Origin: a virus
Taxonomy: Duplodnaviria; Caudoviricetes
DNA length: 26,164 nucleotides
IMG/VR virus record: IMGVR_UViG_3300047283_000052
Span: 1-26,164 of that record
Direction: 5' to 3' (one strand)
Made by a program: the position numbers and the translations under genes. How positions within the stretch are numbered: the stretch's first letter is position 1; every line of letters starts with the position of its first letter. Below the pieces are notes generated by a model. The model was not told where the DNA came from. It saw only the letters and a list, made by a program, of their open reading frames with translations, and made no database searches. Positions 4,392-23,536 of the stretch are shown here, one piece after another.

Positions 4392-5142
4392 AGAAAAACG
4401 CCCAAGCCTGATGATTGCCACACCCATGTATGGGGGCATGTGTACAGGACACTATGTGCAAGGCTTGTTGATGACCATGAACAAGATGCGTGAGATTGGC
4501 GTCAACGTGGCATGGTGTCAGATTATGAACGAGAGCCTCATCACCCGTGCCCGTAACGAACTGGCCCGTGTGTTTCTTGAGAGCGACCATGACTATCTGA
4601 TGTTCATCGACGCCGACATTGGGTTCGATGGTGAAGCCATTGCGCACTTGATGCTGGCCGACAAAGATATCGTGTGCGGCATCTACCCCAAGAAGGAAGT
4701 GAACTGGGACAGCGTCAACCGCGCAGCAGTTGCCGGTAAGAAAGACCTAGAAGCCTATGCGGGGGCCTTTGTGTTCAACATGGTTGGGGGCGAAGACGCG
4801 CACAGCGACGAGGCAGGATGCATCGAGGTCCGCCATGGTGGCACTGGCTTCATGCTCATCAAACGGGGAGTGTTCGAGCATCTTATACCCCACGTTCCTA
4901 CCTACCGCATATCGTCGTTCAAAGACCCAGAGACAGACGAGTACGTCAAGCCTTTGACCCACGAGTTTTTCGCTACCAGCATAGACGCCAGCGGCGCGTT
5001 GCTAAGCGAAGATTACCATTTTTGCGAACTGTGGCGCAACCACGGTGGCAAAATACACGCCCACCCGTTCATCAAGCTGCACCATGTAGGCACGTATGTG
5101 TTTGGTGGTGACATCCTGCAGAGCGGCGGCAATCTTAAATAA
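4384..5142 (+). CDS. GT-A fold (GT2-like) glycosyltransferase
   Basis: LMIATPMYGG, NESLITRARN, MFIDAD (DxD), GTGFMLIKR, LSEDYHFC. Confidence 0.85.
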   Translation: MTEEKRPSLMIATPMYGGMCTGHYVQGLLMTMNKMREIGVNVAWCQIMNESLITRARNELARVFLESDHDYLMFIDADIGFDGEAIAHLMLADKDIVCGIYPKKEVNWDSVNRAAVAGKKDLEAYAGAFVFNMVGGEDAHSDEAGCIEVRHGGTGFMLIKRGVFEHLIPHVPTYRISSFKDPETDEYVKPLTHEFFATSIDASGALLSEDYHFCELWRNHGGKIHAHPFIKLHHVGTYVFGGDILQSGGNLK

Positions 5143-5154
5143 GGAGCAAATGAA

Positions 5155-7245: not shown

Positions 7246-8791
7246 GAACAAAGCGCTGCTCATTGAGACAGCGGAACCCAACCTGATTACCGACAGCATA
7301 AAAAAGAGCGCGGTAGTTTCAACCAACGGGAGCAAATACAAAGTGCTAGTTAGATGGGGGCTAGAGGAAGCCCAGACCCTTGCCACGCTTGAGCATAAGG
7401 GCATACCCTCACCGATATTGCGGGATTACGCATGGACTGGGAAGCTCACTCCGTTTGAGCACCAGAAAACAACAGCGTCCTTCTTGACATTATACGACCG
7501 CGCTTTCTGCTTCAACGAGCAGGGTACAGGTAAGACAGCGTCAGTCATCTGGGCAGCAGACTATTTGATAAAGCGCAACGAGATTAAGCGTGTGCTGGTG
7601 CTGTGCCCCTTGTCGATTATGAAGTCAGCATGGCAGCAGGACTTGTTCAAGTTCGCTATGCACCGCTCGTGTGGCGTGGCCCATGGTGATGCCAAGACCC
7701 GCAAGAAAGTTGTCGCCGCTGGCGCAGAGTTCGTCATCGTTAACTTTGATGGGCTGGCTATCATCAAGGACGACATCATCAATGGCGGGTTCGACCTTAT
7801 CGTGGTGGACGAAGCGAACGCATATAAGAATGTGCAGACCAACCGCTGGAAGATACTGAACGAGATTGTCAAGGCAACTACACCCCGACTGTGGATGCTT
7901 ACTGGTACGCCAGCAGCACAATCACCGCTAGACGCCTACGGGCTAGCCAAGTTAGTTAACCCACGCAACTGCCCCACCTACTACAGCCACTTTCGTGCCG
8001 AGACGATGTATCCGGTGACGAAGTTTAAGTGGGCACCTAAGCCCGGGTCGGATGCTTATGTGCATAAGATGCTACAGCCAGCAATTCGGTTCGAGAAGAA
8101 AGACTGCCTAGACCTGCCGGATGTAACTTATCTTGACCGCGAAGCGCCGCTCACCGTGCAGCAAGCCAAATACTACAAGCAGCTTAAGACCGAGATGCTG
8201 CTTGAGGCAGCGGGTGAAGAGGTCAGCGCAGTGAACGCAGCGGTCAAGATTAACAAGCTACTCCAGATAAGCGGAGGTGCGGTGTATTCGGACACTGGCG
8301 AGGTCATAGAGTTCGATGTGTCCACTCGCTTGAACGCTGTGTTGGAAGTCATAGACGAGGCTACAAGCAAGGTGCTGGTCTTCGTACCGTTCACGCACAC
8401 TATTGAGTTACTAAAGGCCAAGCTGGAGAAGGAAGGCATCACATGCGATGTCATCAACGGCAAGGTTCCGGTCAATAAGCGCACCGACATTGTCACCGAG
8501 TTCCAGACCAAGAAGAACCCCCATGTGCTGCTCATCCAGCCACAGGCTGCATCGCACGGGCTTACGCTTACGGCAGCAGACACAATCATCTGGTACGCCC
8601 CAGTGACATCGGTGGAAACTTATCTACAGGCGAATGCCCGTATTAATCGCCCCGGGCAGAAAAACGCTATGACTATTGTGCATATCCGAGGTAGTGAGGT
8701 CGAGGGGAGGTTATACTCGATGCTGCGTGGCAACATCAACAATCACGAGCGTATCATAGATTTATACAGGGATGTGTTAAGTAACCCTTGA
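7232..8791 (+). CDS. SNF2-family (SF2) DNA helicase
   Basis: EQGTGKT, VVDEAN, LTGTP, HGLTL, QANARINRPGQ; GGGAG SD supports GTG 7232. Confidence 0.93.
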   Translation: MEIVENKALLIETAEPNLITDSIKKSAVVSTNGSKYKVLVRWGLEEAQTLATLEHKGIPSPILRDYAWTGKLTPFEHQKTTASFLTLYDRAFCFNEQGTGKTASVIWAADYLIKRNEIKRVLVLCPLSIMKSAWQQDLFKFAMHRSCGVAHGDAKTRKKVVAAGAEFVIVNFDGLAIIKDDIINGGFDLIVVDEANAYKNVQTNRWKILNEIVKATTPRLWMLTGTPAAQSPLDAYGLAKLVNPRNCPTYYSHFRAETMYPVTKFKWAPKPGSDAYVHKMLQPAIRFEKKDCLDLPDVTYLDREAPLTVQQAKYYKQLKTEMLLEAAGEEVSAVNAAVKINKLLQISGGAVYSDTGEVIEFDVSTRLNAVLEVIDEATSKVLVFVPFTHTIELLKAKLEKEGITCDVINGKVPVNKRTDIVTEFQTKKNPHVLLIQPQAASHGLTLTAADTIIWYAPVTSVETYLQANARINRPGQKNAMTIVHIRGSEVEGRLYSMLRGNINNHERIIDLYRDVLSNP

Positions 8792-8816
8792 CACTGTATA
8801 GTAAGTGGTCCATAGC
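8788..8816 (+). promoter_or_regulatory. Putative sigma70 promoter for the replication operon
   Basis: Perfect TTGACA at 8788-8793, 17-nt spacer, weak -10 (CATAGC), in one of the few intergenic gaps. Confidence 0.5.
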
Positions 8817-8842
8817 AGAGGGCCAACCATAAGGAGCAAAAC

Positions 8843-9250
8843 ATGGAAGAAGAAGTAATCCCAGCTGATAAGCTGGTAGCAGTTTATCGTCGCATCCGTT
8901 CAGCTATCGAAGACCTTGAAGCAGCCCATGCAAAAGAGGTCGAGGTCCTAAAGGGCAAGCTTGAGATGGTATCCGACAAGCTACTCAAGATATGCAATGA
9001 CCAGAACCTAGACAGCCTCCGCACTGCGGAAGGCACCGTGACACGGCGGGTTAAATCCCGTTACTGGACCACGGACTGGTCTACCATGTACAATTTCATC
9101 AAGGAACACGACGCCCCGTTTCTCTTAGAGCAGCGTATTCACAACGGGAATATGAAGCAGTTCCTCGAAGAAAACCCCGAACAGCATCCTGCTGGCTTAC
9201 AGATTGATAGCAAGTACGCTATCACTGTACGTAAACCTACAACCAAGTGA
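8843..9250 (+). CDS. Phage replication/recombination-region protein with an N-terminal coiled coil
   Basis: AAGGAG SD; helical N-terminus then SLRTAEGTV and DW..MYNFI motifs; function not assignable. Confidence 0.8.
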   Translation: MEEEVIPADKLVAVYRRIRSAIEDLEAAHAKEVEVLKGKLEMVSDKLLKICNDQNLDSLRTAEGTVTRRVKSRYWTTDWSTMYNFIKEHDAPFLLEQRIHNGNMKQFLEENPEQHPAGLQIDSKYAITVRKPTTK

Positions 9251-9258
9251 GAGACACA

Positions 9259-10152
9259 ATGAGCAATATCACAATTTTTGAAGACCAAAGCAGCCTACCC
9301 ACCGTCAAACGCGAGTCGCGGCTGGCGGACAAAATCGGTTCTGGCGCAAGCCTACGCCGCATTGCCACCAATACCAACGGCACATTTAAGCGTGTCGTCA
9401 ACGGTGAGCAGATTGGTAAGGCCGTACCGCATGAGATTAACATCATCGTCGTTGACATGCTCAAGGACGTGTCCCGTGAGTTTTATGCGTCTGACTACGA
9501 CCCAGAGGGTAAGGCTTCATTGCCTGATTGCTGGTCCGCTGATGGCCGCACTCCAGATGCTAAGGCTCCTAATCGTCAGGGTTCCGGCTGCGCCACATGC
9601 AGTATGAACATCGATGGTTCTGGCGCTAAAGGCCGTGGTAAGGCTTGCCGCTTCAAGCGCCGCATCGCGGTGTTGGTTGAGGGTGACCCGACTGGTGACA
9701 TCTACCAGATGAGCTTTGCTGCTAAGTCGCTATTCGGTAAGGGTGTCGGCAACGAGCATCCGTTCGAGAGCTACTGCAATTACCTAAAGGCTAACGGCGA
9801 AGCACCGGACACGGTGGTGACCAAGGTTATGTATGACCTCGACGCAGACACGCTGACTCTTAAGTTCAAAGCAGTGCGCCATCTGACACAGGACGAAGCT
9901 GACCTTGTTGATGCTGCCTTTGCCAGCGGTGAAGCACAGCGTTATATTCAGCTTACGACGTCCGAAGTTGATGGTGCCAAGGCACAGCCAGCAAAGGTTA
10001 TCGAAGCCCCCAAGGCTACGTTGTTTGACGAGCCGGAAGAGGAAGAAGCAGCGGAGCCGGTAAAGCGCGTTGCTAAGAAACCTGCTGTTGTCGATGCTCC
10101 CGTAGAAGACAAAGGTCTCTCGGACTTGCTCGGCGAGTGGGCGGAGGACTGA
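9259..10152 (+). CDS. Probable single-stranded DNA-binding protein
   Basis: Cys cluster (PDCWS, CATC, KACR), long acidic/Pro tail ending LLGEWAED, position upstream of the primase-helicase. Confidence 0.6.
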   Translation: MSNITIFEDQSSLPTVKRESRLADKIGSGASLRRIATNTNGTFKRVVNGEQIGKAVPHEINIIVVDMLKDVSREFYASDYDPEGKASLPDCWSADGRTPDAKAPNRQGSGCATCSMNIDGSGAKGRGKACRFKRRIAVLVEGDPTGDIYQMSFAAKSLFGKGVGNEHPFESYCNYLKANGEAPDTVVTKVMYDLDADTLTLKFKAVRHLTQDEADLVDAAFASGEAQRYIQLTTSEVDGAKAQPAKVIEAPKATLFDEPEEEEAAEPVKRVAKKPAVVDAPVEDKGLSDLLGEWAED

Positions 10153-10155
10153 GGC

Positions 10156-10401
10156 ATGTCGCATGGCTACACAATCAAAGTAGCTGATGCCATCAGGAAC
10201 GCTGACGGTAACTTACTAGGTGTAAAACTTGGGCGTGTTTGCTTGGACCGAGATATCTCGGTCCAAGAGGCCGCTCGGACCTTAGGGGTTACCCGTCAGA
10301 CGATATACCAGTGGTTCTGCGGAGAAACTAATCCACATGCGCAGCATATTGATATGATGTTGACGTGGCTGGACGACCTCGGCGAGATTACTAAGTCTTG
10401 A
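10156..10401 (+). CDS. XRE/Cro-like HTH DNA-binding protein
   Basis: ISVQEAARTLGVTRQTIYQWFCGETNP. Confidence 0.85.
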   Translation: MSHGYTIKVADAIRNADGNLLGVKLGRVCLDRDISVQEAARTLGVTRQTIYQWFCGETNPHAQHIDMMLTWLDDLGEITKS

Positions 10402-10455: not shown

Positions 10456-13293
10456 ATGAATCACGTAGACCTTTTGAGTATCGTGCAGCCAGCTGATGGC
10501 TGGTTTGCCGTACTCGGTATCAAGGGTGAACGTGACGTAAGGCAGAAACTTGTAGCTACTAGGGAAGAGGTAGACACGCTTACAGAGAAGTATGTTGCGG
10601 AAGGTCGCAACGTATTCTTCGGTGTCGCCAAATATGAGACGGGGCAAAACAGGCAAAAGGAGAACGTCAAAGCTCTCCGTTCGTTCTGGGTGGATATTGA
10701 CTGCGGCCCTACGAAGGCTGTGGTCAGCGAGAAGACAGGGAGGCCAGACGGTTACATTGACCAAGACGCAGGGATAGCCGCACTTCGGCAGTTCTGCAAA
10801 ACGGTTGGGTTGCCAAAGCCGCTCGTTGTTAATTCGGGACGCGGTATACACGCATACTGGCCACTAACCCAAGACATAACCCGCCAAGAGTGGGAACCCG
10901 TAGCTAATAGGCTTTCCGCACTATGCGTTACGCACAACTTTTATGTAGACCCAGCGGTGTTCGAGGTAGCGCGTATCCTGCGTATACCGGGCACATTCAA
11001 TTTTAAGGATAACCCACCCAAGCAGGTGACGGTGATTTTTGACGCTGCTCCGGTAGAGTTCGAAGAGTTCCGTACGGCTCTTGGGGTTGAAGCTCCGCGT
11101 GAGATGGCTGTGCCTGAGCGGCGCAAGAGCAACATCGCCGAGAAGCTACAGGATAATAACATATCCCGTTTCTCCAAGATAATGCGGCGCAGCGCGAAGG
11201 GTGACGGCTGTCAGCAGCTGCTATCTGCCTATGAGGAACGAGCTTCGCTATCAGAAGTCCGGTGGTTTGACGCGTTGTCGATTGCCAAGTTCTGTGTGGA
11301 TAGGGACACTGCAATCCAGAAGATGTCCCACGGGCATCCGGATTACGACCCAGTTCGGGCGTTGGAGAAGACCAAGCACATCACGGGGCCACATAACTGT
11401 GCGACCTTTGAGCGCAATAATCCCGGGGGCTGTTATGGCTGTCCCTACTTGGGTAAGGTTAAGAACCCCATCGTGCTCGGTAGGGAAGTGGCAGAGACCG
11501 AGACAGAGGACGGAAACTATGTCGTCCCTGAGATGGGTGAAGACGATGTGCCTATCGACTATCGTATACCCGAGTACCCGTTCCCGTTCACACGGGGCAA
11601 GAAGGGCGGCATCTACCTCAAGCCAGAAAAAGACGAGGAGGTAGCTACTCTCGTCTATGAGCACGACTTATATCTCGTGAAGACGATGACTGACCCCAAA
11701 GAGGGTGACGTCTTAGTCATGCGGCTGCACCTACCCAAAGAAGGTGTGCGCGAGTTCGTCATCACGCAGAAACAAGCGGTTGGGGACGGGTCAGAGCTTC
11801 GTAAGGTGCTGGCAAGTAAGGGCGTAGCTGCCACCGAAAAGCAGTTCAAACAGCTCATCTTGTTCATAACCATGTCACTCAAGGCGATACAATATAAAAG
11901 GAAAGCAGAGCTTATGCGTATGCAGTTTGGCTGGGCTGATAACGACACCAAGTTTATCATCGGGGACCGTGAGATTTGCTTCGACGGTATATTTCATAGT
12001 CCGCCATCATCAACAACACGTGAGTGGGCTGAACACCTACACACAGCAGGTTCCTATGAGAAATGGCAGGAAGTCATTAACCTGTACGGACGTCCGGGGT
12101 TAGAGCCACATGCGTTCGCTGTGCTGACTGCGTTCGGGGCACCGCTCTTCAAGTTTACAGGGCAGTCGGGCGCAATCATAAACGTCATCCACCCCACATC
12201 AGGTACGGGTAAGACCACCCTGCTCCACGCAACGAACAGCATATACGGCCACCCCAAGGACCTATGTGCAATCAAGGGGGATACTGCCAACGCTAAGACG
12301 CAGCAGCTTGGCGTCTTTAACAACCTGCCGTTCTGCGTAGACGAAATCACCAACATGACAGGGGCGGGGCTGTCAGAGATGTCGTACAACATCAGCCAAG
12401 GGCGGGGTAAGAACCGCTTGAAGGCATCGTCCAACGAGCTTCGCATGAACACCACAAGGTGGCAGACGATGAGCCTTTGCTCATCCAACGCTTCCATCTA
12501 CGAAAAGCTGGGGCTGCACAAAAGTCACCCGGACGGTGAGATGATGCGTCTACTAGAGTATAAGATAGAACCCACTACTGCTATTCCGACCGACTACGCA
12601 AAGCAGATGTTCGACTTCCAGCTGCTCGAAAACTACGGTCATGCTGGACCTATCTATATCCAGTGGGTGATAAACAACCTCGAAGACGTTAAGAACACGC
12701 TCAAGGTGGTGCAGGAAAAGGTTGACCGTGAATTGAAGCTTACGCAGCGCGAACGCTTCTGGTCTGCCAAGCTGGCGGCTAACCTAACTGGCGGTATGAT
12801 TGCTCGTCGCCTTAAGATTATCGACTGGGATATGCAGCGCATCTATGCGTGGGCAACGAGCATGGTCCTCGAAACACGGCAGGATGTGGAAGCGCCGCAC
12901 ATCTCCACGATGGCGGTACTGGGCGACTATCTGAACCGGAATATCCACAACATCCTTGTCGTTAACAACGAGGCAGATAGCCGGTCTAACTTGGCACCAT
13001 CGCCTCTTCACGAACCCAAAGGTGCGCTATATGCTCGGTTTGAGCCGGATACTAAGCGCCTGTATGTGGACTATAAACACTTCCGCGAGGAGTGCATCAA
13101 GGCACAGATAAACTACAAAGAGATCATCAAGGACTTCAAGAAGTGTGGGGCTTACCTCAAGACAGACAACAAGCGTCTATCCAAGGGTATGGCGATGACG
13201 ACCCCGTCCGTATACTGCATCGAGTTCGATACCAGCGTGGGCGACTTCCTTGATATGGGTGCCTTCGTACCGGAGAATGAGGATGCAGATTGA
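10456..13293 (+). CDS. Primase-helicase fusion (RepB'/AEP-like primase plus DUF927-type helicase)
   Basis: WVDID, NSGRGIHAYW, RILRIPGTFN (primase); HNC..CYGC Cys cluster; QFGW, SGTGKTT, VDEITN (P-loop). ATG 10456 preferred. Confidence 0.88.
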   Translation: MNHVDLLSIVQPADGWFAVLGIKGERDVRQKLVATREEVDTLTEKYVAEGRNVFFGVAKYETGQNRQKENVKALRSFWVDIDCGPTKAVVSEKTGRPDGYIDQDAGIAALRQFCKTVGLPKPLVVNSGRGIHAYWPLTQDITRQEWEPVANRLSALCVTHNFYVDPAVFEVARILRIPGTFNFKDNPPKQVTVIFDAAPVEFEEFRTALGVEAPREMAVPERRKSNIAEKLQDNNISRFSKIMRRSAKGDGCQQLLSAYEERASLSEVRWFDALSIAKFCVDRDTAIQKMSHGHPDYDPVRALEKTKHITGPHNCATFERNNPGGCYGCPYLGKVKNPIVLGREVAETETEDGNYVVPEMGEDDVPIDYRIPEYPFPFTRGKKGGIYLKPEKDEEVATLVYEHDLYLVKTMTDPKEGDVLVMRLHLPKEGVREFVITQKQAVGDGSELRKVLASKGVAATEKQFKQLILFITMSLKAIQYKRKAELMRMQFGWADNDTKFIIGDREICFDGIFHSPPSSTTREWAEHLHTAGSYEKWQEVINLYGRPGLEPHAFAVLTAFGAPLFKFTGQSGAIINVIHPTSGTGKTTLLHATNSIYGHPKDLCAIKGDTANAKTQQLGVFNNLPFCVDEITNMTGAGLSEMSYNISQGRGKNRLKASSNELRMNTTRWQTMSLCSSNASIYEKLGLHKSHPDGEMMRLLEYKIEPTTAIPTDYAKQMFDFQLLENYGHAGPIYIQWVINNLEDVKNTLKVVQEKVDRELKLTQRERFWSAKLAANLTGGMIARRLKIIDWDMQRIYAWATSMVLETRQDVEAPHISTMAVLGDYLNRNIHNILVVNNEADSRSNLAPSPLHEPKGALYARFEPDTKRLYVDYKHFREECIKAQINYKEIIKDFKKCGAYLKTDNKRLSKGMAMTTPSVYCIEFDTSVGDFLDMGAFVPENEDAD

Positions 13294-13477
13294 GGGTGTC
13301 ACCTACGATGTGAACTGGAAAGCCTTCAAAAAAGGCACGGATATCTTCGTTCCGTGCCTAGACCCCAAAGCCGCAAAAGCACAACTGCTTGTGGTCACTA
13401 AACGCCTCAAGCTCAAGGTATTGATAAAAGTGACGGTCCAAGATGGAATTAGGGGTTTACGTGTCTGGCGTTTGTAG
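13283..13477 (+). CDS. Small basic protein ending in GLRVWRL
   Basis: GGAG SD 7 nt upstream of ATG 13283, overlapping the primase stop. Confidence 0.75.
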   Translation: MQIEGVTYDVNWKAFKKGTDIFVPCLDPKAAKAQLLVVTKRLKLKVLIKVTVQDGIRGLRVWRL

Positions 13478-13484
13478 GTATATG
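13451..13484 (+). promoter_or_regulatory. Putative promoter AGGGGTTTA-N19-TATA for the junction sRNA
   Basis: TTTACG-17-TATATG; same motif and spacing as 25059-25092 on the - strand. Confidence 0.5.
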
Positions 13485-13490
13485 TGCCCC

Positions 13491-13562
13491 CGCAAGTTTT
13501 GCTCCTTGCAAGGTTGATACCTTTCTACCCCTCATCGGACCTCCCCCGATGAGGGGTTTTTT
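13491..13562 (+). ncRNA. Putative trans-acting antisense sRNA, about 72 nt
   Basis: Non-coding, bounded by a promoter-like motif and a terminator; complementary to leaders at 8824-8845 and 10411-10429; short hairpins GCAAG/CTTGC and AAGGT/ACCTT. Confidence 0.55.
13527..13562 (+). terminator. Rho-independent terminator
   Basis: 12-bp perfect stem ACCCCTCATCGG / CCGATGAGGGGT, loop ACCTCCC, followed by a T run. Confidence 0.92.
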
Positions 13563-16500
13563 ATTTCGGATTAAGCAGTTTGTCCGCGTATAAGGACTCA
13601 ACTTCATTAAGCCCCATGCCTTGGATATCGTACTTCGCTTCTGCCGCAGAGCTAGTCAGTGACCTGTACATATTGGCATAGGAGATGCCGAAATATGGGT
13701 TCCCAACCTTCTTGTTAAACTCCATGATATCCTCGACCGCCTCACGTGCTTTCTCTTGCCCGTCTGCGTCACCGTTCTGGATGCGGCGCACGGCTTGCTT
13801 GTAAGCACCGAGCAACTCGGTCTTCTCATCTTTAAGCCCCTCGTAGCGGTTCAGCACGTCGCGGTTCTGCTGCTGCACCTTCGCAACCTGCGTCGGGTTA
13901 AAGCCTAATGCGGCACCGATAATCTCAGCGTTACTGATATCTTCCGCTCTCAGTTTAATCTTCTCTGTTTGGGTACGTACACCCTCTTCGCTGAGCCTGT
14001 ACGCTTTGATTGGTGCGCGGACCATAGCCGGAAGGCCAAGCTCAAGACCCTTAAGCACGTCGCCCTTGGCGAACTCTTCACCCATAGCCACCATGTTGAG
14101 CGATGCAGACGCACCGGGGATATTCTCCACCAACGCGTTGTTGACCGTCTGCGTCCATGTTTCCGCATCCTTAGGTGAACGGAACCACATACCCGCAAGG
14201 TCGAGCGAGACACGAGAACCAAAGTTCCACCCCGTTGCTTCCGACACAGCACCGTTGAGGATGATGTCGCTTAGTTTAATCTGCTTGCCGTTAGCAGCAG
14301 TGAGCATGGGCTGCCCGAAGTGCTCCGGTAGCCACTCGTAGCGGAACTGCATCTCGACACTGTCGGCTGTCAGCGGGTTCTCCAACATCCGCTTCTTACG
14401 GTCTTCGTCATCGTCAGTTGCGTCTTGGAGCGCTTGAAGCGTCATCATACCCAGCGTGTACAGCGGTAGGCCGACCACACCACCCATCAAGAAGCCCATG
14501 CCCAGAACGCCGGTCATTTCTTTCATAGCGGCAGTGCGCTCATCACGCGGTGTGTTCTTGCCGAAGATAGCTCGCGTTGCCTGCACAAAGAAGGTCGTGG
14601 TGATAACAGAGTATTGTTTAAACAAGAACAAAGCCCGGGCAAGCTCACTGCCTTTCATCACGGGAGGCCGGTTGAGGTTAGTGTAGTTACCCAATGTGTA
14701 GTTCACGGTGTCCTTGGCAGCGATGATAGCCTTGTTCTGCCGTTCCTCAGAGGACAGCCCTGCATTGGCCAGCTTGTCATACTCAAGGTCGTACGTAGCC
14801 ATAAAGGCCACTTCGCGGGTCAGCTGCTCCGACGTATCAAACAGGTACGTCATAGCATCATAAATCTTTTCACGAGTTTCCGCCACGCTACTTTCCAGCC
14901 CTGACAGCGCAGTGCGCTTATCACCCATAAGAAACTCCGACAGTGGCATAATCAGGCCATACTCGTTCGTCGCACGGGTCAGTGCATCACGGTGCCGCCC
15001 GCTGTTCTTTATGATATTTGACTCCATAAGGGTCGGAATGCGGAAGGTCTTACGCTTGCCTTTTTCTTTGTTCTCAAACTTAGGGAGGTTTTTGAACACG
15101 TTCATGTACCGACCCATGGCACGGGTCGTATTAGCCATTCCGTACTTACCCCATAGATTAGGTGCTACACGCATAGGCAGAGCGGTAACCTGTACGAGTG
15201 CAGTAGCCGGGGCGGTTAGGAACGACACGAACGCAAGCTGGTTCATCCACGGAACAATCTTGGTCGCAAGGCCGCTTGGTTGTGGCTCCATCTCCCCTTC
15301 GATGCGTTTTTCGATGCTCGAAATAAAGTCGCGTGCCAGCGTTTGCTCGCTTGAGGATATCGAAATCTTATCCTCTTCGTCCTTACCAACATCCGGAACC
15401 GCCCCGATGGACTTCTTTGCAGCCTGAATAGCGCGGTCAATCTCAGGCGAATAACGCAACCGAGAGACGTCCGAAGCATATTCTTCAGCCGTTGCGCCAA
15501 ACGTACGTAGTATGTCTGAACTCCATCCGAGGCGGTTCTTGGACTTGATAAACTGCTTACGCCCAGACCCTTCCGGGGTGTTGAGCAGGTGCATCTGGTA
15601 CACATCGTTGCGAAGCTGGTTTTTCTTAGCTTCCGTAAATGTGCCAACGTCAATTTCTGAAATCTTGTTCAGGATTTTGATGAACGCATTATCAGCATCA
15701 AAGTCGTCACCAAGCTGCGTCTTGACATCGTTACCCGCCTGTATGTGGTTTGCATTTTCTTTGTCTAGATTAAACTGTTTCGCAGCGGCTTCCATGTCAG
15801 CGTCACGTTCCGCCATGGTTTCGTAGAAACGCAGGATAGGTTCGCCATATGGGGTTTTCTTGATGCGTAGCCAGTAGTTACCATAACGACGCTTGGGAAA
15901 ATACTCACGATGGAACAGACCCAGCGGCACCTCAGGGTAATCTAAATGTGCATCTTCTTTGCTAGGTGCATTAACCTTGTCGTTCAGGCGCTCCTGCTCA
16001 GCCCGTATAGCGATGGCCATCTTAGAAACGGTTTCGTCAGAAAGTCCAGCGTCACGCAGGTTTTCAATCCGCTTGTCCATCAGATACTGACGCCGCAGTT
16101 GCATGTCACGATTTGCATTACGGATACGCGTGTACAACTTACGCCCTTCTGCCCCGAGTTTGCTCAGGATGTCCAGCGCACCGTCAATCTCAGCTTCCCG
16201 CTTGGCGAGCTTACCTTCAAACTTTTTCTTATTCTCGGGGGTAAGAGCAGGGTCCTTTAGCAGCTTAGTGTACCTGCGCCAGATTTGGTCGGTCTTAAGC
16301 GCATCCTCACGAGACTTTGCGTCCATAAGGCTGACCATATCTATGTTGTAATAATTGCCATGGTCCATGGCAACTGGGAGCGCTTTGCGCTTTTCCTTAC
16401 CAACCATTATAGGGTCTGCATCGCTAAGCAGGTAGCTCTTGAGGTCGGATGTTATCCTGTTCAACAGGCGGCGCGTGGCAGCGCGGGTACCGTTCATCTT

Positions 16501-19500
16501 ATCCGCAGCGTCAACAGCATCCTGAAGCGCATCTGCCGTGACCTTAGCAATTTTGCTATATGCGTAGGCTATCACACCATCCGTAGGCATGAAGTCAAGA
16601 CCTCCACGGCCTATCCAGCCGTTCGAAGCAGTCGTGCTCATGAGGCCGCCAAGCCAGTTCTTGATGGCCTTACCCGTAATTATGCTACCAATACCCCCGA
16701 GTATGCTACGTGAGTTTTTCACATCGACCCGGTCTGCTACCGTTGTGCCAACCTTCTCGACGGTAGCCTGTGCATCGGTGTCGGCATCTGCGACTTTCTC
16801 ATCAGCTTCGTTTTCCTCGGGTGTCTTAAACATCATCGACGAGCCACCCATGACAGTTCCCTTACCAGAGAGAGCCTGCTCATGAGCCATGGCAAGGATG
16901 GTGCGCACCTCGCGGTCACTGAATTTAAAGTCGAAGCCAAGGTACTTACGAGCGAAGTCCTTGATGTACTTCATCAGCTTGTCCAACCGGCTTGCACGCA
17001 GTGGTCCTGCTTCCGACGCAGACGCAAGGACTTCTTCTACCGCACGTGCAGTGGGGTTCTCGTCCTTAGAATATAGGTCTTGGTTCGCACTCAGCCATTT
17101 GTCAGCCAATGCAGCTACGCCCTTATTGGTACGATAGATATCGTCCAGCACGGCGTCCAAACCTTCACGGAACCGCTCACGCAGGCCAAGGTGCCCAAGA
17201 GCCTCATGGTAGAGCGTAGGTGCGACGTCCTCAACGCTGTGCATATTGTCAGCGATAAGGTAGGCTTTGCCGTCCTTGTAGAAGCCGAACGCGTCGGTGC
17301 GGCCAAGCTTCTCGATTTCCTTACGGATAGCATCAGGCAAGTCTGCAACAGACTGCACCATCTTAGGTTCGAGACGCGCACCCCAGCGGCTCGTGATAGC
17401 CTTGACCGCGTTGTTAAGCTCTTCCAGCGTAATACCAGTAGCTTTGCCCTTGGCCCTACGGAACATAATGGGTTCGGGACGCACCTCACCCATTTCACGC
17501 CTAAACACAACTTCGCTAATAAGCCCGCGCTCATAGTTGCGCTTAAGTTGTTCAATGCGCTTCTGGCGCGTGTTTTTAATCTCCGCAAGTTTTTCACGGG
17601 TGCGCTTGTAGATACCAGACTTTGCCTTGGCTAGCTCGGCACTCTGGTCCTTGGTGCGTGCAGCAATTTCTTCCGCCCGCTTTTTGAACTCTTTCTTCTT
17701 GGCGGGGGTCAGATTGTTTTGCTTTTCGGCTAACTTTTCTTCGGCGCGAAGTTTCCGACCTTCCTCGGTGAGCGCATCAATATCGTTTTGGATCGCCGTA
17801 GCCAGCGTCCATTCACGACTCTTTGCAAGCTCCTTACCCTGTGGAGTACGTAGCATCTGTACAAGTTCAGTGCGCTCAGCGTTGTTAATTTGCCGCGCCT
17901 TACGTGCTTCGTCAATTTCAGACAGAAGCAGTTCTTGCTGCTGCTCCTGCGCAGGTGTCAGTTTACCGGCGTTTGCAGGTCCTTTCGGGGCAGCTTCAGC
18001 CACTGTTGGCTTTGCTTGTTCCAGACCCTTTGCGGCACCCGCAGGCATTTGCTTGACGGGAACGCCTTCTATAACCTGCTTGGGTTGGATTGGCGTCTGG
18101 TTGAGGATAGCGTTGCGTAGACCACCTATTGAAGTATACGCAGTGTTACCGATAGCTTTCTTTTGCCCCGCAATACCGAAGGTGTAGGGCTTAACTTTAT
18201 CCGGGTTGTAGCGCACTTCAAAGCCGGGGTTATACTGGTCAACTTCAGCTTGCAGCGCCTGCACTTCGGGGGGCAGCGCAACCTTCTCGACCGTAGCAGT
18301 CTCAGCAACCGTAGGTGTCGCTTCTTGTGCCGGGAGTTCGGGTAGTTCTTCTACTGTGGTAGGAGCAGCAATATTCTGTTCCAGCGTTCCAGCAACTTCA
18401 GAAACTTTTTGTTCGGGGACGGCAGCAGCTTCAAACGCTGTTTCTGCCTCGATAGCCTTTTCGATACCAAGCACTTTGAAGAGTGCAGACGGAGCGTCGA
18501 GACCCGGAGTGCGGACCATCTGCTGTGCGGCTATGTTAATTTGCTTTGGTGTAACCTCGAAACCTTCAAAGTCCGGCGCGGCAAGTGTAGTGTTCAACAT
18601 CTCCGTAGCGGCAGTAATCCGCTCAGGAGTTACGAGCTTCTTTGCTTTTGGAAGCGCCATGACCGGAGGGGCTTCTACAGCAGGTGCCTCTACAGCAGGT
18701 GCGGGTGCAGACGTAATAGGCGCAGCTTCTTCTACGACCTGCGTAGGTGCAGGTTTGATAGGCGCAACTTCTTCTACGGCTGGCGCAAGCTGCTTAGCAA
18801 TCTGGGCTTGCGGGCTTACCTCTTCTATAGGTGGGATAATCGGTGCGGGCTTCAGTGCAGGCTCGACAGCTCCTTCACGTGCCATAGGTTGTCCAGTAGG
18901 AACGCCAACTCCTCCCACTGGTCCTCCCTCAACATCTGTAGATGGTCCGGCAGGTTCTGTATCGGTATCTGGTGGGCTAACACTTGAAACAGCAGGCTCA
19001 CCTCCTCCAACGTCAAGTTCTTCAGCAACATCGGGTTCCTCCGTCGGCTCAGTATCTGCTTTGGCCCTACCCCGTTCAGCTACTGCTTGTTCAACAGCCT
19101 CTATTGGAGTGGCACTAGCATCAATTTGCATAATCTCAGCAGCGCGTGCACGGATAGCGGGGTCTTGTGCTTCCGGCATTCCGGTGGCTTCGATTTCTCC
19201 CTTAAAACCCTCTAGGTCTGCAGCAAGTTCTTCGTCTGTAGCAATAGGACCCGGCGCGGACTGTCCCGGAATACCACCCACACCACCAAGGACGCCACCT
19301 GCCAGAGCTTCAAACGCAGCCTGACCGGCCACACCAGCCATAAGGTCGGTGTCATATCCTTCGCGTCGTTCAGCGAGATTTTGTGCAAACCGTTCTTGGC
19401 CAGCCTGAGCAGCTTCAGGTATTGCTTCTGCCCCAGCCCCTGTGGCCACACGCCGTGCGATGCCGCGTGTAGCTTCTTTTTCAACGACGCCCTCAACGAC

Positions 19501-20262
19501 ATCTTCGATTGCACTTTTGGCGATTGCGCGTCCAAGCACCTTATCGAAACCTGTAGCGCCAGCAACGGCACCAAGTGCGCCACCCAAGGCGACTTGATCT
19601 AAGTTTTTACCTCCGTAAGCCTGCGCTTCTTCGGCCATAGCTTTTGCTTGTTCTTCGGATGCACCAGCTTCTTTCGCACGTGCATACACGGCATCGCTTA
19701 TGCTACCTTTAACAGTACCTACACCGGATGCAGCACCGAGGGCACCAATCACGGGGAGGCCAGCACCAGACGCAGCGGCAGCGGCAAATGGAAGCGCGGA
19801 ACCTGTGACGTTAGCAAGCGTGTCGAGCGGGTTAACAGCAAACGAACGAGCCGCAGCTTTAACTTCTTCCCAGATACCCTTACCCTCTGCAGCCTTACGG
19901 ATAGCGGCGGCGGTCTTCTCGTCTTGACGCGACTGGGCCGATGTCAGGCTTTCTGCATACTGGGCTACGGTCTCAAGTGCATTGGAAGCCATGTTCTCAG
20001 CACCGAACACATCGGTGAAGCTCTTACCCGTATTGGCCAACCCAGAGACAACATTGAGCGGAATGTCCGCAGCACCGGCCAACAACCCGCCGACCACGGG
20101 GACTTTCTCAAGAAGGTTCTCTTCTTCCTTGGGGCCTTGAGGTCCACCTCCACCCGCTTGCTGTTTAACGAACGCAAATATTTCATCCGGGCTAGCTGTG
20201 TCAGCGGCGCGAACGTCGTAAATACGCCCGTTATATTGGACAGAATAAATCCGGTCGGGCAT
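13561..20262 (-). CDS. Giant internal virion / ejection protein (large polyvalent protein type), 2233 aa
   Basis: Gly/Ala-rich hydrophobic N-terminus, long Pro/Glu/Ala linker, zincin-like LYHEALGH..EE, PLxRFG-like YFPKRRYG, helical C-terminus with hydrophobic segments; last gene of the virion arm. Confidence 0.8.
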   Translation of the reverse strand: MPDRIYSVQYNGRIYDVRAADTASPDEIFAFVKQQAGGGGPQGPKEEENLLEKVPVVGGLLAGAADIPLNVVSGLANTGKSFTDVFGAENMASNALETVAQYAESLTSAQSRQDEKTAAAIRKAAEGKGIWEEVKAAARSFAVNPLDTLANVTGSALPFAAAAASGAGLPVIGALGAASGVGTVKGSISDAVYARAKEAGASEEQAKAMAEEAQAYGGKNLDQVALGGALGAVAGATGFDKVLGRAIAKSAIEDVVEGVVEKEATRGIARRVATGAGAEAIPEAAQAGQERFAQNLAERREGYDTDLMAGVAGQAAFEALAGGVLGGVGGIPGQSAPGPIATDEELAADLEGFKGEIEATGMPEAQDPAIRARAAEIMQIDASATPIEAVEQAVAERGRAKADTEPTEEPDVAEELDVGGGEPAVSSVSPPDTDTEPAGPSTDVEGGPVGGVGVPTGQPMAREGAVEPALKPAPIIPPIEEVSPQAQIAKQLAPAVEEVAPIKPAPTQVVEEAAPITSAPAPAVEAPAVEAPPVMALPKAKKLVTPERITAATEMLNTTLAAPDFEGFEVTPKQINIAAQQMVRTPGLDAPSALFKVLGIEKAIEAETAFEAAAVPEQKVSEVAGTLEQNIAAPTTVEELPELPAQEATPTVAETATVEKVALPPEVQALQAEVDQYNPGFEVRYNPDKVKPYTFGIAGQKKAIGNTAYTSIGGLRNAILNQTPIQPKQVIEGVPVKQMPAGAAKGLEQAKPTVAEAAPKGPANAGKLTPAQEQQQELLLSEIDEARKARQINNAERTELVQMLRTPQGKELAKSREWTLATAIQNDIDALTEEGRKLRAEEKLAEKQNNLTPAKKKEFKKRAEEIAARTKDQSAELAKAKSGIYKRTREKLAEIKNTRQKRIEQLKRNYERGLISEVVFRREMGEVRPEPIMFRRAKGKATGITLEELNNAVKAITSRWGARLEPKMVQSVADLPDAIRKEIEKLGRTDAFGFYKDGKAYLIADNMHSVEDVAPTLYHEALGHLGLRERFREGLDAVLDDIYRTNKGVAALADKWLSANQDLYSKDENPTARAVEEVLASASEAGPLRASRLDKLMKYIKDFARKYLGFDFKFSDREVRTILAMAHEQALSGKGTVMGGSSMMFKTPEENEADEKVADADTDAQATVEKVGTTVADRVDVKNSRSILGGIGSIITGKAIKNWLGGLMSTTASNGWIGRGGLDFMPTDGVIAYAYSKIAKVTADALQDAVDAADKMNGTRAATRRLLNRITSDLKSYLLSDADPIMVGKEKRKALPVAMDHGNYYNIDMVSLMDAKSREDALKTDQIWRRYTKLLKDPALTPENKKKFEGKLAKREAEIDGALDILSKLGAEGRKLYTRIRNANRDMQLRRQYLMDKRIENLRDAGLSDETVSKMAIAIRAEQERLNDKVNAPSKEDAHLDYPEVPLGLFHREYFPKRRYGNYWLRIKKTPYGEPILRFYETMAERDADMEAAAKQFNLDKENANHIQAGNDVKTQLGDDFDADNAFIKILNKISEIDVGTFTEAKKNQLRNDVYQMHLLNTPEGSGRKQFIKSKNRLGWSSDILRTFGATAEEYASDVSRLRYSPEIDRAIQAAKKSIGAVPDVGKDEEDKISISSSEQTLARDFISSIEKRIEGEMEPQPSGLATKIVPWMNQLAFVSFLTAPATALVQVTALPMRVAPNLWGKYGMANTTRAMGRYMNVFKNLPKFENKEKGKRKTFRIPTLMESNIIKNSGRHRDALTRATNEYGLIMPLSEFLMGDKRTALSGLESSVAETREKIYDAMTYLFDTSEQLTREVAFMATYDLEYDKLANAGLSSEERQNKAIIAAKDTVNYTLGNYTNLNRPPVMKGSELARALFLFKQYSVITTTFFVQATRAIFGKNTPRDERTAAMKEMTGVLGMGFLMGGVVGLPLYTLGMMTLQALQDATDDDEDRKKRMLENPLTADSVEMQFRYEWLPEHFGQPMLTAANGKQIKLSDIILNGAVSEATGWNFGSRVSLDLAGMWFRSPKDAETWTQTVNNALVENIPGASASLNMVAMGEEFAKGDVLKGLELGLPAMVRAPIKAYRLSEEGVRTQTEKIKLRAEDISNAEIIGAALGFNPTQVAKVQQQNRDVLNRYEGLKDEKTELLGAYKQAVRRIQNGDADGQEKAREAVEDIMEFNKKVGNPYFGISYANMYRSLTSSAAEAKYDIQGMGLNEVESLYADKLLNPK

Positions 20263-21823: not shown

Positions 21824-23536
21824 TTATCCTCCACGGAACGTATTATATATACCAGCCGCAGCAAGACCACCGCCTAATAGTGTCTGCCCTACGCCCGGTG
21901 CCGGAGCACTTTCTGTGCGTGTAGTTTGTGTAGCTTGTGGCACACCGCTCATAAGGTTAGCGTAACGCTGGTACTGCATGTACGGATAGTCGGCTTCCCG
22001 CAAGAAGTCTCCATAGTCAAGGTCACGCCGCTGCTGGCCAAGAGCTTGCTCCTGTGCCGCTGTGGAAGTCTGCAAGCCGTAACGTGCAAGGTCCGCATTC
22101 TGCTGCGCCGAACCGATATTAGAGAGTGTTTGTCCGAACTGACCCAACTGACCGAAAGCAGCTAGTCCTTGACCTGCACCAAACTGACGCGACTGCTCAC
22201 GCATACGCTGGCGCTCAAGGTCCGCCTGCTGGTTCGCCCGAAGAGCTTCAAGTCCGGTGGATGCACCCAGACGTTGCGTCTCAAGTGCGGCCTGCAAGTT
22301 TTGCTGGCCCGTGGTGAGTTGTGCCTGCTGGTTGGCCAAGGCAGCCTGCATGGCTTGTTGTTGGTTAAGACCTTGCTGCTGAAGCTGCGCCGCCAAATTC
22401 TGGACATTAGCCTGCGAAGCGGCGTCAAGGTTAGCAAGTGAGGCACGTAGGTCTGTCTCGGTACCAAGCTGCTGCGTTTGCAGGTTGGCCATAAGATTCT
22501 GCTGACCTGTGGTTAGCCCCGCTTGCTGGTTGGCCAGCGCAGCACGCATCGACTGCTCGGCATTCATACCCTGAGCTTGGAACTGCTGGGCTTGGTTATT
22601 AACACGTGCCTGCTGCTCTTTGTCAAGGTTAGCCAAAGCCGCCTGTAGACCCGTCTGGGTGCCAAGCTGTTGCTGCTGGAGTGCCGCTTGGAGATTCTCA
22701 CGTCCGGCTGTCATACCCGCTGCACGGTCACGCTCAAACTGGGCTTGCGCACTTTCGTACGCTGCCTGACGTCCACGAGCCTCGATATCACCAAGCTGCT
22801 GACCAAGATTACGCTCACGCTCAAGACCAGCAAGTAGCTGACGGCTACCACCATAAGTGCCCTGACGTGCGGCACCAAGGTCTTGAACAAGCTGCGATTG
22901 CTTCGCACTGCGGATAGCTTCGCGCTTCTGTGGCTCCATTACGGCTTCCGCAAAAGGCGACATGTACTGCTGAGCCTGCACGCCACCAAACTGCTGTGGA
23001 GCATCCATACGGAACTGCTCAAGCGGACCTTGGCCATACGTAGTCTGCGCTGCCTGCATATCTTGCGACTGCACATTGCTACCTTGCACATTACCCGGCT
23101 GCTGCATTTGGAAGTAATTCAAGTTTGGTGTGAAACCAGTCTGAGCGGCTTGCATCTGGGGTGTGCCGTATTGCTGAGCACGCACATTACGTACTGGACC
23201 CATACTATACTGCTGCAGGTTGGGCATACCGATTTGCTGAGCACCAAACTGACCGGGATTATACTGCGCATTGGCAAGTGTGCCTTGCGCGGCAGTGTTC
23301 ATAAAATTGGAAGCCTGACCAAACTGACCCGGTGTCTGCATACCAGCAATTTGGTTTTGAAGGTTTTTCTGCTGCTGCGTAAACCCTTCGAGGCGGTCGC
23401 CCCCTTGGTAGATAGGCATATCGGTACGCAAAAGACCCTGCGCACCCTGCATAAGGGTGTTATAGTAAGGCAGTTGGGCCGCACCGATATTCGATGTGGT
23501 CTGAATAACATTTTGAGTAGTAGTTTTAGAGGCCAT
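21824..23536 (-). CDS. Gln-rich DNA ejection / pilot-like protein
   Basis: QQYMSPF..V, GTYGGSRQ, long Q/N/A-rich coiled coil with 66-aa repeats, hydrophobic Gly-rich C-terminus. Confidence 0.75.
   Translation of the reverse strand: MASKTTTQNVIQTTSNIGAAQLPYYNTLMQGAQGLLRTDMPIYQGGDRLEGFTQQQKNLQNQIAGMQTPGQFGQASNFMNTAAQGTLANAQYNPGQFGAQQIGMPNLQQYSMGPVRNVRAQQYGTPQMQAAQTGFTPNLNYFQMQQPGNVQGSNVQSQDMQAAQTTYGQGPLEQFRMDAPQQFGGVQAQQYMSPFAEAVMEPQKREAIRSAKQSQLVQDLGAARQGTYGGSRQLLAGLERERNLGQQLGDIEARGRQAAYESAQAQFERDRAAGMTAGRENLQAALQQQQLGTQTGLQAALANLDKEQQARVNNQAQQFQAQGMNAEQSMRAALANQQAGLTTGQQNLMANLQTQQLGTETDLRASLANLDAASQANVQNLAAQLQQQGLNQQQAMQAALANQQAQLTTGQQNLQAALETQRLGASTGLEALRANQQADLERQRMREQSRQFGAGQGLAAFGQLGQFGQTLSNIGSAQQNADLARYGLQTSTAAQEQALGQQRRDLDYGDFLREADYPYMQYQRYANLMSGVPQATQTTRTESAPAPGVGQTLLGGGLAAAGIYNTFRGG
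22220..22714 (-). repeat. About 2.5 imperfect 198-bp (66-aa, 6x11) coding repeats
   Basis: Units start at 22714 (MTAGRENL), 22516 (LTTGQQNL) and 22318 (LTTGQQNL). Confidence 0.85.

Follow-up and report, generated by a model that had tools for sequence, protein, structure and literature searches.

A predicted small RNA at the early/late junction of a phage family mirrors a lineage-specific tag at early-gene ribosome binding sites

The antisense RNA c4 is phage-encoded, acts in trans and presents its antisense sequence in a loop to a phage target. It controls one antirepressor operon in immunity, through target sites that lie upstream of the antirepressor gene. The ar14 or cuckoo sRNAs of Alphaproteobacteria have repeated CCUCCUCCC loops. 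SviR is reportedly another named phage sRNA, grouped with the phage-encoded base-pairing RNAs. Several such RNAs, including VpdS, PreS, 24B_1, sar and OOP, steer the infection cycle (described in the sections of PMC12197685 that deal with them), and c4 of phages P1 and P7 constitutes Rfam family RF01695 (listed in PMC2864571).

Two further systems act at, or are positioned at, the translation starts of early genes. Cluster K mycobacteriophages carry start-associated sequences (SAS), an asymmetric AGGAG-containing repeat found a few bases before the starts of non-structural genes (Pope et al. 2011, PMC3203893). SAS is longer than pairing with 16S rRNA explains, and in the sections devoted to it the authors left open whether an RNA or a protein binds it; four K1 genomes have one SAS copy that runs in the opposite orientation and is unconnected with a start (PMC3203893). 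In T4, translational shut-off of early genes by phage proteins is already known. RegB cuts GGAG/U within the Shine-Dalgarno (SD) sequences of early mRNAs with the help of S1, thereby ending early-mRNA translation while sparing or stimulating the polymerase (PMC3014915, PMC9409239).

The locus described here lies in a 26,164-nt stretch of viral DNA (Caudoviricetes; IMG/VR record IMGVR_UViG_3300047283_000052, positions 1 to 26,164), called the window below. Its + strand encodes a DNA polymerase, an exonuclease, a SNF2-type helicase, ORF 8843, an SSB-like protein, an HTH protein, a DUF927 primase and a 64-aa protein, and late-type genes on the - strand converge on these early genes. ORF 8843 heads the block formed with the SSB-like, HTH and primase genes. 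The label SSB-like comes from an earlier, sequence-only reading of this DNA; the PHROG match of that gene has no known function. The features of the junction and of its main predicted target are the following.

8788-8816, + strand: predicted ORF 8843 promoter, with an imperfect palindrome lying over its TTGACA; its -10 is poor in the window and good in relatives
8824-8845, + strand: leader, RBS and start codon of ORF 8843, the main predicted target (from the predicted duplex)
8843-9250, + strand: ORF 8843, a conserved protein of 135 aa (phrog_13900, E 3e-18; DUF7307 below the cut-off)
13283-13477, + strand: 64-aa gene, conserved in relatives and last on the early strand; contains the -35 element
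13456-13461, + strand: predicted -35, TTTACG, within the 64-aa gene (from codon constraint in relatives)
13479-13484, + strand: predicted -10, TATATG; TATAAT, TATACT and similar in relatives (from conservation)
13492-13563, + strand: predicted 72-nt small RNA, comprising hairpin 1, hairpin 2, a short linker and an intrinsic terminator (from the fold and the conserved junction unit)
13492-13509, + strand: hairpin 1, with a 5-bp stem and an 8-nt loop at 13497-13504 (from fold and covariation)
13496-13507, + strand: seed, exact complement of the ORF 8843 RBS and spacer; 8 of its 12 nt are in the loop
13512-13516, + strand: second pairing stretch, GGTTG, within hairpin 2, complementary to 8824-8828
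13527-13563, + strand: intrinsic terminator with a U-tract only on the + strand; the stem at 13527-13557 is called by a terminator scan
13561-20262, - strand: convergent late-strand gene of 2233 aa, whose stop codon overlaps the U-tract of the unit

The 64-aa gene belongs to no Pfam or PHROG family and has no match among GenBank phages; the Atlas neighbours of its product are unnamed viral proteins, with DUF7303 only as a lead at 0.84. The imperfect palindrome TTGAC-N3-GTCAA over the -35 of the ORF 8843 promoter (window 8788-8800) recurs before some other early genes of relatives (L221:19481, L217:18459, L235:17635, L236:14394, L209:10664 and 17457) and is perhaps an operator, for which the HTH gene at 10156 is a candidate. 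Between the helicase gene and the 8843 ortholog, loci L001, L003, L005-L008, L014 and L017 of close relatives have about 270 extra bases that are absent from the window.

Relatives of this phage are abundant in metagenomes, with roughly 1,300-2,300 stored stretches matching the marker-gene patterns. Near-complete relatives measure about 60-74 kb, and the late strand of one of them, G004, carries terminase, portal and capsid genes. The nearest cultured relative, Pseudomonas phage Rollin, shares 30% identity in the primase and 30% in ORF 8843; its converging genes overlap, so that no junction is present. In Rhizobium phage RHph_TM3_14A there is a gap of 64 nt that contains a terminator and lacks an evident seed. 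A scan of 185,579 genomes returned five loci, two of them strong, on MAG contigs of 15 kb and 60 kb whose labels we do not read as hosts.

On strong comparative evidence, the junction element is real and conserved. The sequence-only reading had placed at the early/late junction a candidate 72-nt RNA beginning at 13491, with its seed near the predicted 5' end and partly in a hairpin loop, an upstream promoter-like motif and a strong terminator. The unit and its position stand and the terminator is borne out by the scan call and the U-tract, as is the position of the seed by the eight bases that hairpin 1 exposes; spacing suggests G13492 and not 13491 as the probable 5' end, both ends of the 72-nt unit being placed from promoter spacing and the U-tract. 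The unit folds at -33 kcal/mol (z = -7.0), largely due to the terminator. At least five T follow the terminator stem on the + strand in 92 of 94 loci and on the - strand in 0 of 94; folding energy fails to distinguish the strands (43 of 94 loci). In an alignment of 51 sequences drawn from 79 typical loci, hairpin 1 shows two-sided changes in 18 cells, equalled by none of 500 shuffles, a result that relatedness can inflate; on the + strand it also allows G-U pairs (19 one-sided cells). A weak covariance model built on only 4 pairs detects a single copy, at the junction, in the window and in each of 7 of 10 relatives; five of those seven had been training sequences. It gives one further hit at E = 0.05 and misses G002, G007 and G008.

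Variation around this core takes several forms. A GCAGTTGC motif recurs 5' of the seed in distant lineages (L246, L249, L260-L263, L266, L288, L325-L327, L331, L341 and others) and GCATCAC occurs 3' of it in many near lineages; these motifs are possibly a second seed or a protein site. Longer units in L031, L046, L049, L086 and L112 have an extra hairpin with CTCCCTCC-like loops that resemble generic anti-SD loops. The possibility that the unit encodes a small peptide was rejected because the seed undergoes one-base length changes.

The promoter-like site has its TTTACG and TATATG separated by 17 nt. The case for this motif is made by conservation; the consensus promoter scan of the window did not call it. 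Among 88 loci with the motif (6 others lacked it), the codon overlapping the -35 is TTA in 74, TTG in 11 and GTA in 3, and never CTN, whereas the other Leu codons of the 64-aa gene are CTN in 306 of 422 cases and TTA accounts for 5% of primase Leu codons. The distance from promoter to seed is 47-49 nt in 63 of 76 distinct metagenome matches, though 33-61 nt were allowed, and a loosely defined terminator follows promoter and seed in 70 of 75 metagenome matches. The -10 is frequently without its final T. In one lineage, L322-L341, a longer form of the upstream small gene appears to extend over the promoter into the RNA unit, and in L354 the promoter-bearing end of the small gene is tandemly duplicated ahead of the unit. 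Of five runs listed, one RNA run contributed a small share; with three of the five compared, that run yielded six low-depth contigs, one of which spans 13432-13563 and then diverges. These are not used as evidence of expression, because single assembled contigs give neither ends, strand nor level.

The proposed pairing of the seed with the start of ORF 8843 holds in the window: 13496-13507 is the exact reverse complement of 8831-8842, adjoining ATG 8843, and the predicted duplex includes both the pairing of GGTTG with CAACC at 8824-8828 and, past one mismatch, two pairs with the start codon. With a 19-nt leader assumed, this duplex has a net energy of -14.1 kcal/mol and is the best target in the window. 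Shuffled controls had been suggested together with the claim; among 5000 dinucleotide shuffles, 2 attain a 12-nt match to the 8843 start region. A second 12-mer of the unit nevertheless matches within late coding sequence near 22300, so a 12-nt match alone is not rare. In addition, half of the seed is a generic SD complement. The case for the unit is built on its relatives.

Four scans produced 207 loci; with the window added, 137 of 208 had both the 8843 ortholog and the junction, 94 of them distinct. The longest exact complement to the start of the 8843 ortholog averages 10.1 nt in these 94 loci and is at least 8 nt in 94% of them, compared with means of 4.7-6.0 nt and 0-11% for four neighbouring starts (SSB-like, HTH, primase with n = 72, and the 64-aa gene). 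In all, 79 of the 94 loci beat at least 198 of 200 shuffles, and the 8843 ortholog is the best-energy start of the five in 73. Of the 94, L076, L093, L126 and L178 show no match between seed and 8843 ortholog, and L120, whose element was not extracted, was scored as a miss. Conservation of the complementarity at the junction, which the sequence-only reading proposed to check by alignment, is found in most of the near set. From two more scans, started from distant proteins, 111 distinct pairs remained once loci lacking one or other gene and three without a terminator call had been removed. The terminator-ended unit is retained in this distant set and only 56 of 111 reach 8 nt; about half of the loci have a short generic match only, in many cases just CTCCT. 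Own pairs still average 8.0 nt against 5.9 nt for foreign pairs, with at least 10 nt in 35% versus 2.3%. For own against foreign pairs in both the near and the distant set, none of 10000 permutations was as good, and conservation reaches to about 50% primase identity.

The seed and the RBS change together. Among 198 loci, the pair TTGCTCC/GGAGCAA occurs in 74 (8 with the seed word only, 4 with the RBS word only), TAGCTCC/GGAGCTA in 15 (1 and 0), TCGCTCC/GGAGCGA in 11 (3 and 1) and AGTTCC/GGAACT in 5 (2 and 2). The generic words TTCTCC and CTCTCC do not track their RBS, and word-by-word tests on independent pairs reach no significance because switches are too few. A swap test over 84 disjoint sister pairs from a primase tree does reach it: the own partner gives the longer pairing in 32-33 pairs and the shorter one in 11 (p 0.001-0.002). 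By energy the own partner is the stronger in 41-43 and the weaker in 13-14; in both the word and the swap tests the L121 element substituted for that of L120. Individual loci illustrate the pattern. In L120/L121 the match is perfect over 16 nt and of different sequence, L124/L132 reproduce the two-part duplex of the window in other letters with gene-specific pairing past the tag that includes G-U pairs, and the window and L003 differ in length by one base, in seed and leader alike. L002 combines a longer seed with a shorter leader. The second stretch at 13512-13516 covaries weakly in relatives (19 versus 6 of 46 sister pairs). Covariation of seed and leader, a check that had been proposed for this locus, is present, both in the sister pairs and as code changes of whole lineages.

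The match is not confined to ORF 8843. Five early starts of the window (130, 2530, 2928, 5155 and 8843) have AGGAGCA ahead of them; of the six late start positions listed, none does. The four sites besides that of ORF 8843 are given below.

117-125, + strand: tag before ORF 130; 9-nt match to the seed
2518-2525, + strand: tag before ATG 2530; 8-nt match
2916-2922, + strand: tag before ORF 2928; 7-nt match, lengthened by a G-U pair
5141-5150, + strand: tag before ORF 5155, whose product is a DUF6378 protein; 10-nt match

The net energies of these secondary targets, -5.7 to -8.0 kcal/mol, are no better than that of the untagged start at 9259 (-6.3). The tagged gene at 2530-2931 contains an RNA polymerase alpha-CTD domain (Pfam E 2e-12) and its product is a possible transcription-related host-takeover factor. 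GTG 7343 was considered as a sixth target and not counted, because its tag falls within the helicase reading frame.

A survey of the window and ten records, with gene starts from a simple caller, extends the pattern to relatives. A hand-picked 7-mer of each genome's own precedes 59 of 251 SD-bearing early-strand ORFs versus 2 of 219 late-strand ORFs, with up to 11 tagged genes per genome that lie up to 21 kb away from the unit. Without hand-picking, the early 7-mer that ranks first or ties for first is the one mirrored by the unit in 10 of 11 genomes, and its late count is 0; shuffles of single genomes reach that count 2-91 times per 1000 in the ten positives, which is modest, and G007 has no tag match to its unit. 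The tag differs by lineage (AGGAGCA, AGGAACT, GAGGTAA, AGGAGCG). The distinct codes of G001 and of G002/G008 best match their own genomes, and tags are mostly without cross-match. Orthologous genes switch tag along with the seed: the 284-aa gene in 8 of 9 cases, an ATPase in 5 of 8 and 8843 in 8 of 10. The bases that follow AGGAG lack complementarity to the usual 16S tail, and late genes in these genomes do not use them; the ribosome is therefore no explanation for the tag.

These results redraw the target that the sequence-only reading had assigned, namely the replication operon of 8843, SSB, HTH and primase. The RBS of 8843 as an aim of a trans-acting antisense RNA is upheld by conservation, covariation and + strand polarity. 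The operon as such is not, since the tag precedes five early genes in the window and up to 11 in relatives, and the SSB-like, HTH and primase starts match the seed at background level; an effect on those three would need polarity from 8843. A switch from replication to assembly in the form proposed fares no better, replication orthologs being tagged in only 0-2 of 11 genomes (polymerase 1, helicase 2; primase, nuclease and SSB-like 0 each). On the sequence evidence, the observation is thus confirmed and broader than first reported, its object being a tagged early set and not one operon.

Sequence comparison establishes the anatomy and + polarity of the unit, its single copy per genome (where the model finds it), an early-only tag and the joint change of the two. 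Because the seed mirrors the tag and both change together, the unit likely makes a small RNA that would switch off the early set: a trans-acting antisense RNA would probably block the tagged RBSs and end synthesis of the tagged early proteins as it accumulates. Host polymerase would transcribe the RNA of about 72 nt from the promoter-like site in the 64-aa gene. The loop would nucleate pairing, after which the 3' arm of the stem would open and cover the SD, with ORF 8843 as the strongest predicted target at about 20 pairs. The expected effect is repression rather than activation, with ribosome loading blocked on the tagged genes as a set. By analogy with RegB, the RNA would build up during infection until the tagged early proteins stop, and the mostly untagged replication enzymes and the late genes would continue. 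Host mRNAs with the same RBS could also be hit.

The same RNA and pairing might instead serve immunity or a dormant carrier state, in which a constitutive RNA represses resident early genes and silences phages of the same tag; the lineage-specific tags would then be immunity groups. Their general lack of cross-match agrees with such a role, as does a promoter that looks of host-polymerase type and would need no phage factor, and lysogeny and exclusion are the settings in which P22 sar and BTP1 STnc6030 act (in the sections of PMC12197685 on these RNAs). We nevertheless consider immunity unlikely: no integrase or immunity repressor occurs among 56 proteins of G004 and 22 early proteins of G008 (subsets), the large genome scan gave five loci, two of them strong, and one tag is common to many distant relatives. 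A distinctly unlikely alternative is the narrow scheme originally put forward, where the RNA acts mainly on 8843 and then on SSB-like, HTH and primase through translational coupling or polarity to turn replication into assembly, other tagged starts being secondary. It draws on 8843 being the best target in the window and the best of five starts in most loci, and on an SSB-like gene that begins 8 nt past the 8843 stop; however, in G002 and G008 the 8843 ortholog is equalled or surpassed by other early genes in its match to the seed, tagged genes number up to 11 per genome, and the HTH gene at 10156 possesses an SD-like sequence of its own.

Other readings dispense with a free-standing RNA or with pairing altogether. 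The unit lies 14 nt past the last stop codon, on the strand of the early genes, and the 8843-to-64-aa transcript must also finish at its terminator, so the unit could be the promoter-less 3' end of that transcript, folding back on its own 5' RBS or cleaved into a 3'-UTR-derived RNA. The -10 that often lacks its last T would fit, but constraint at synonymous sites yields TTTACG or TTGCG at a fixed distance, the promoter-to-seed length is nearly constant and tagged genes lie as far as 21 kb off, which makes this origin quite improbable. Very improbable is a tag bound by a RegA- or RegB-like protein, with the junction copy in the other orientation acting as a decoy, a read-through cleavage site or a DNA site. 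On its - strand the junction indeed reads as a copy of the tag, and T4 proteins do act on early SD sequences (in the part of PMC3014915 on this subject). Against this stand the U-tract and promoter confined to the + strand, the G-U pairs tolerated there by hairpin 1, the gene-specific pairing with G-U past the tag in L124/L132, and the new protein specificity that each repeated code switch would require. Finally, 12-nt matches do arise by chance in the window and the seed is half generic, yet a plain terminator region with a chance anti-SD-like sequence has next to no likelihood given conservation to about 50% primase identity, the swap test and the early-only tag, and is refuted for the near family.

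Measured against the described systems, the antisense RNA favoured here shares features with several and coincides with none. Like RegB, it would be phage-encoded, aim at the SDs of many early mRNAs, end their translation and spare the polymerase; the difference is that RegB is a protein, whereas the reader here would be an RNA and its site a lineage-specific extended tag. No RegB nuclease was named in PHROG scans of protein subsets from the window and two relatives. As in trans-encoded sRNAs, the unit has an intrinsic terminator with a U-tract and a conserved, covarying seed against a distant translation start. By analogy, it would work like RegB, and it is built like a trans-encoded sRNA. 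c4 differs in serving a single antirepressor operon, whereas the unit mirrors a genome-wide early tag; c4 (RF01695) is absent among the three Rfam matches obtained at E up to 5, all of them sub-threshold, and in the protein subsets covered, 18 from the window and 78 from two relatives, no antirepressor annotation occurs. The best Rfam score belongs to ar14 (RF02344), which resembles the unit in an anti-SD sequence in a hairpin loop and a terminator; at 24.2 bits (E 0.32) it falls below the gathering threshold of 58.8, and the unit has one seed loop rather than repeated ones. VpdS, PreS, 24B_1, sar, OOP and SviR target host genes or single phage genes, or work as cis-antisense RNAs, and none is portrayed, in the parts of the literature that cover them here, as mirroring a shared RBS tag. 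Literature searches listed no description of the unit. Its seed motif is absent from six supplementary files of Fremin 2023 (PMC10690425) that were searched, and the unit may be among the 10,006 unannotated candidates reported there.

Of all these systems, SAS offers the likeness of an extended AGGAG repeat confined to early (non-structural) gene starts together with a rare reverse copy, both found here for the tag. The two differ in sequence, in the unrelated phages that carry them, in the longer SAS motif of 13 nt and in the greater number of SAS copies, and the tags described here diverge from the 13-nt SAS consensus outside the AGGAG(C) core. The sections of PMC3203893 on SAS describe no partner RNA, whereas the reverse copy here has a promoter-like site, a hairpin, a terminator and covariation with the tag. 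A wider idea, which we offer tentatively and regard as doubtful, is that early genes carry a private RBS barcode read by one sRNA, the two drifting into mutually blind codes that serve both as an early-gene timer and as kin-specific exclusion; such a reader would be the unexplained partner of SAS, recurring in unrelated phages. If true, an RNA reading an RBS tag that is genome-wide and lineage-specific would add a new mode of running the phage programme, and would offer a testable answer to the question of 2011 as to what reads SAS. The roughly 200 natural seed/target pairs would allow a study of how one RNA and many targets switch code jointly, and would be a source of natural orthogonal repressor/RBS pairs.

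Among SAS-bearing phages, Pixie has 18 forward SAS sites and no reverse site in the 40 kb covered. Mycobacterium phage Validus has, likewise in 40 kb covered, 19 forward sites and one reverse site with 2 mismatches, at L402:38899-38911 in annotated gene 103; as a lead only, this reverse site lies in a predicted hairpin loop directly 3' of another strong hairpin.
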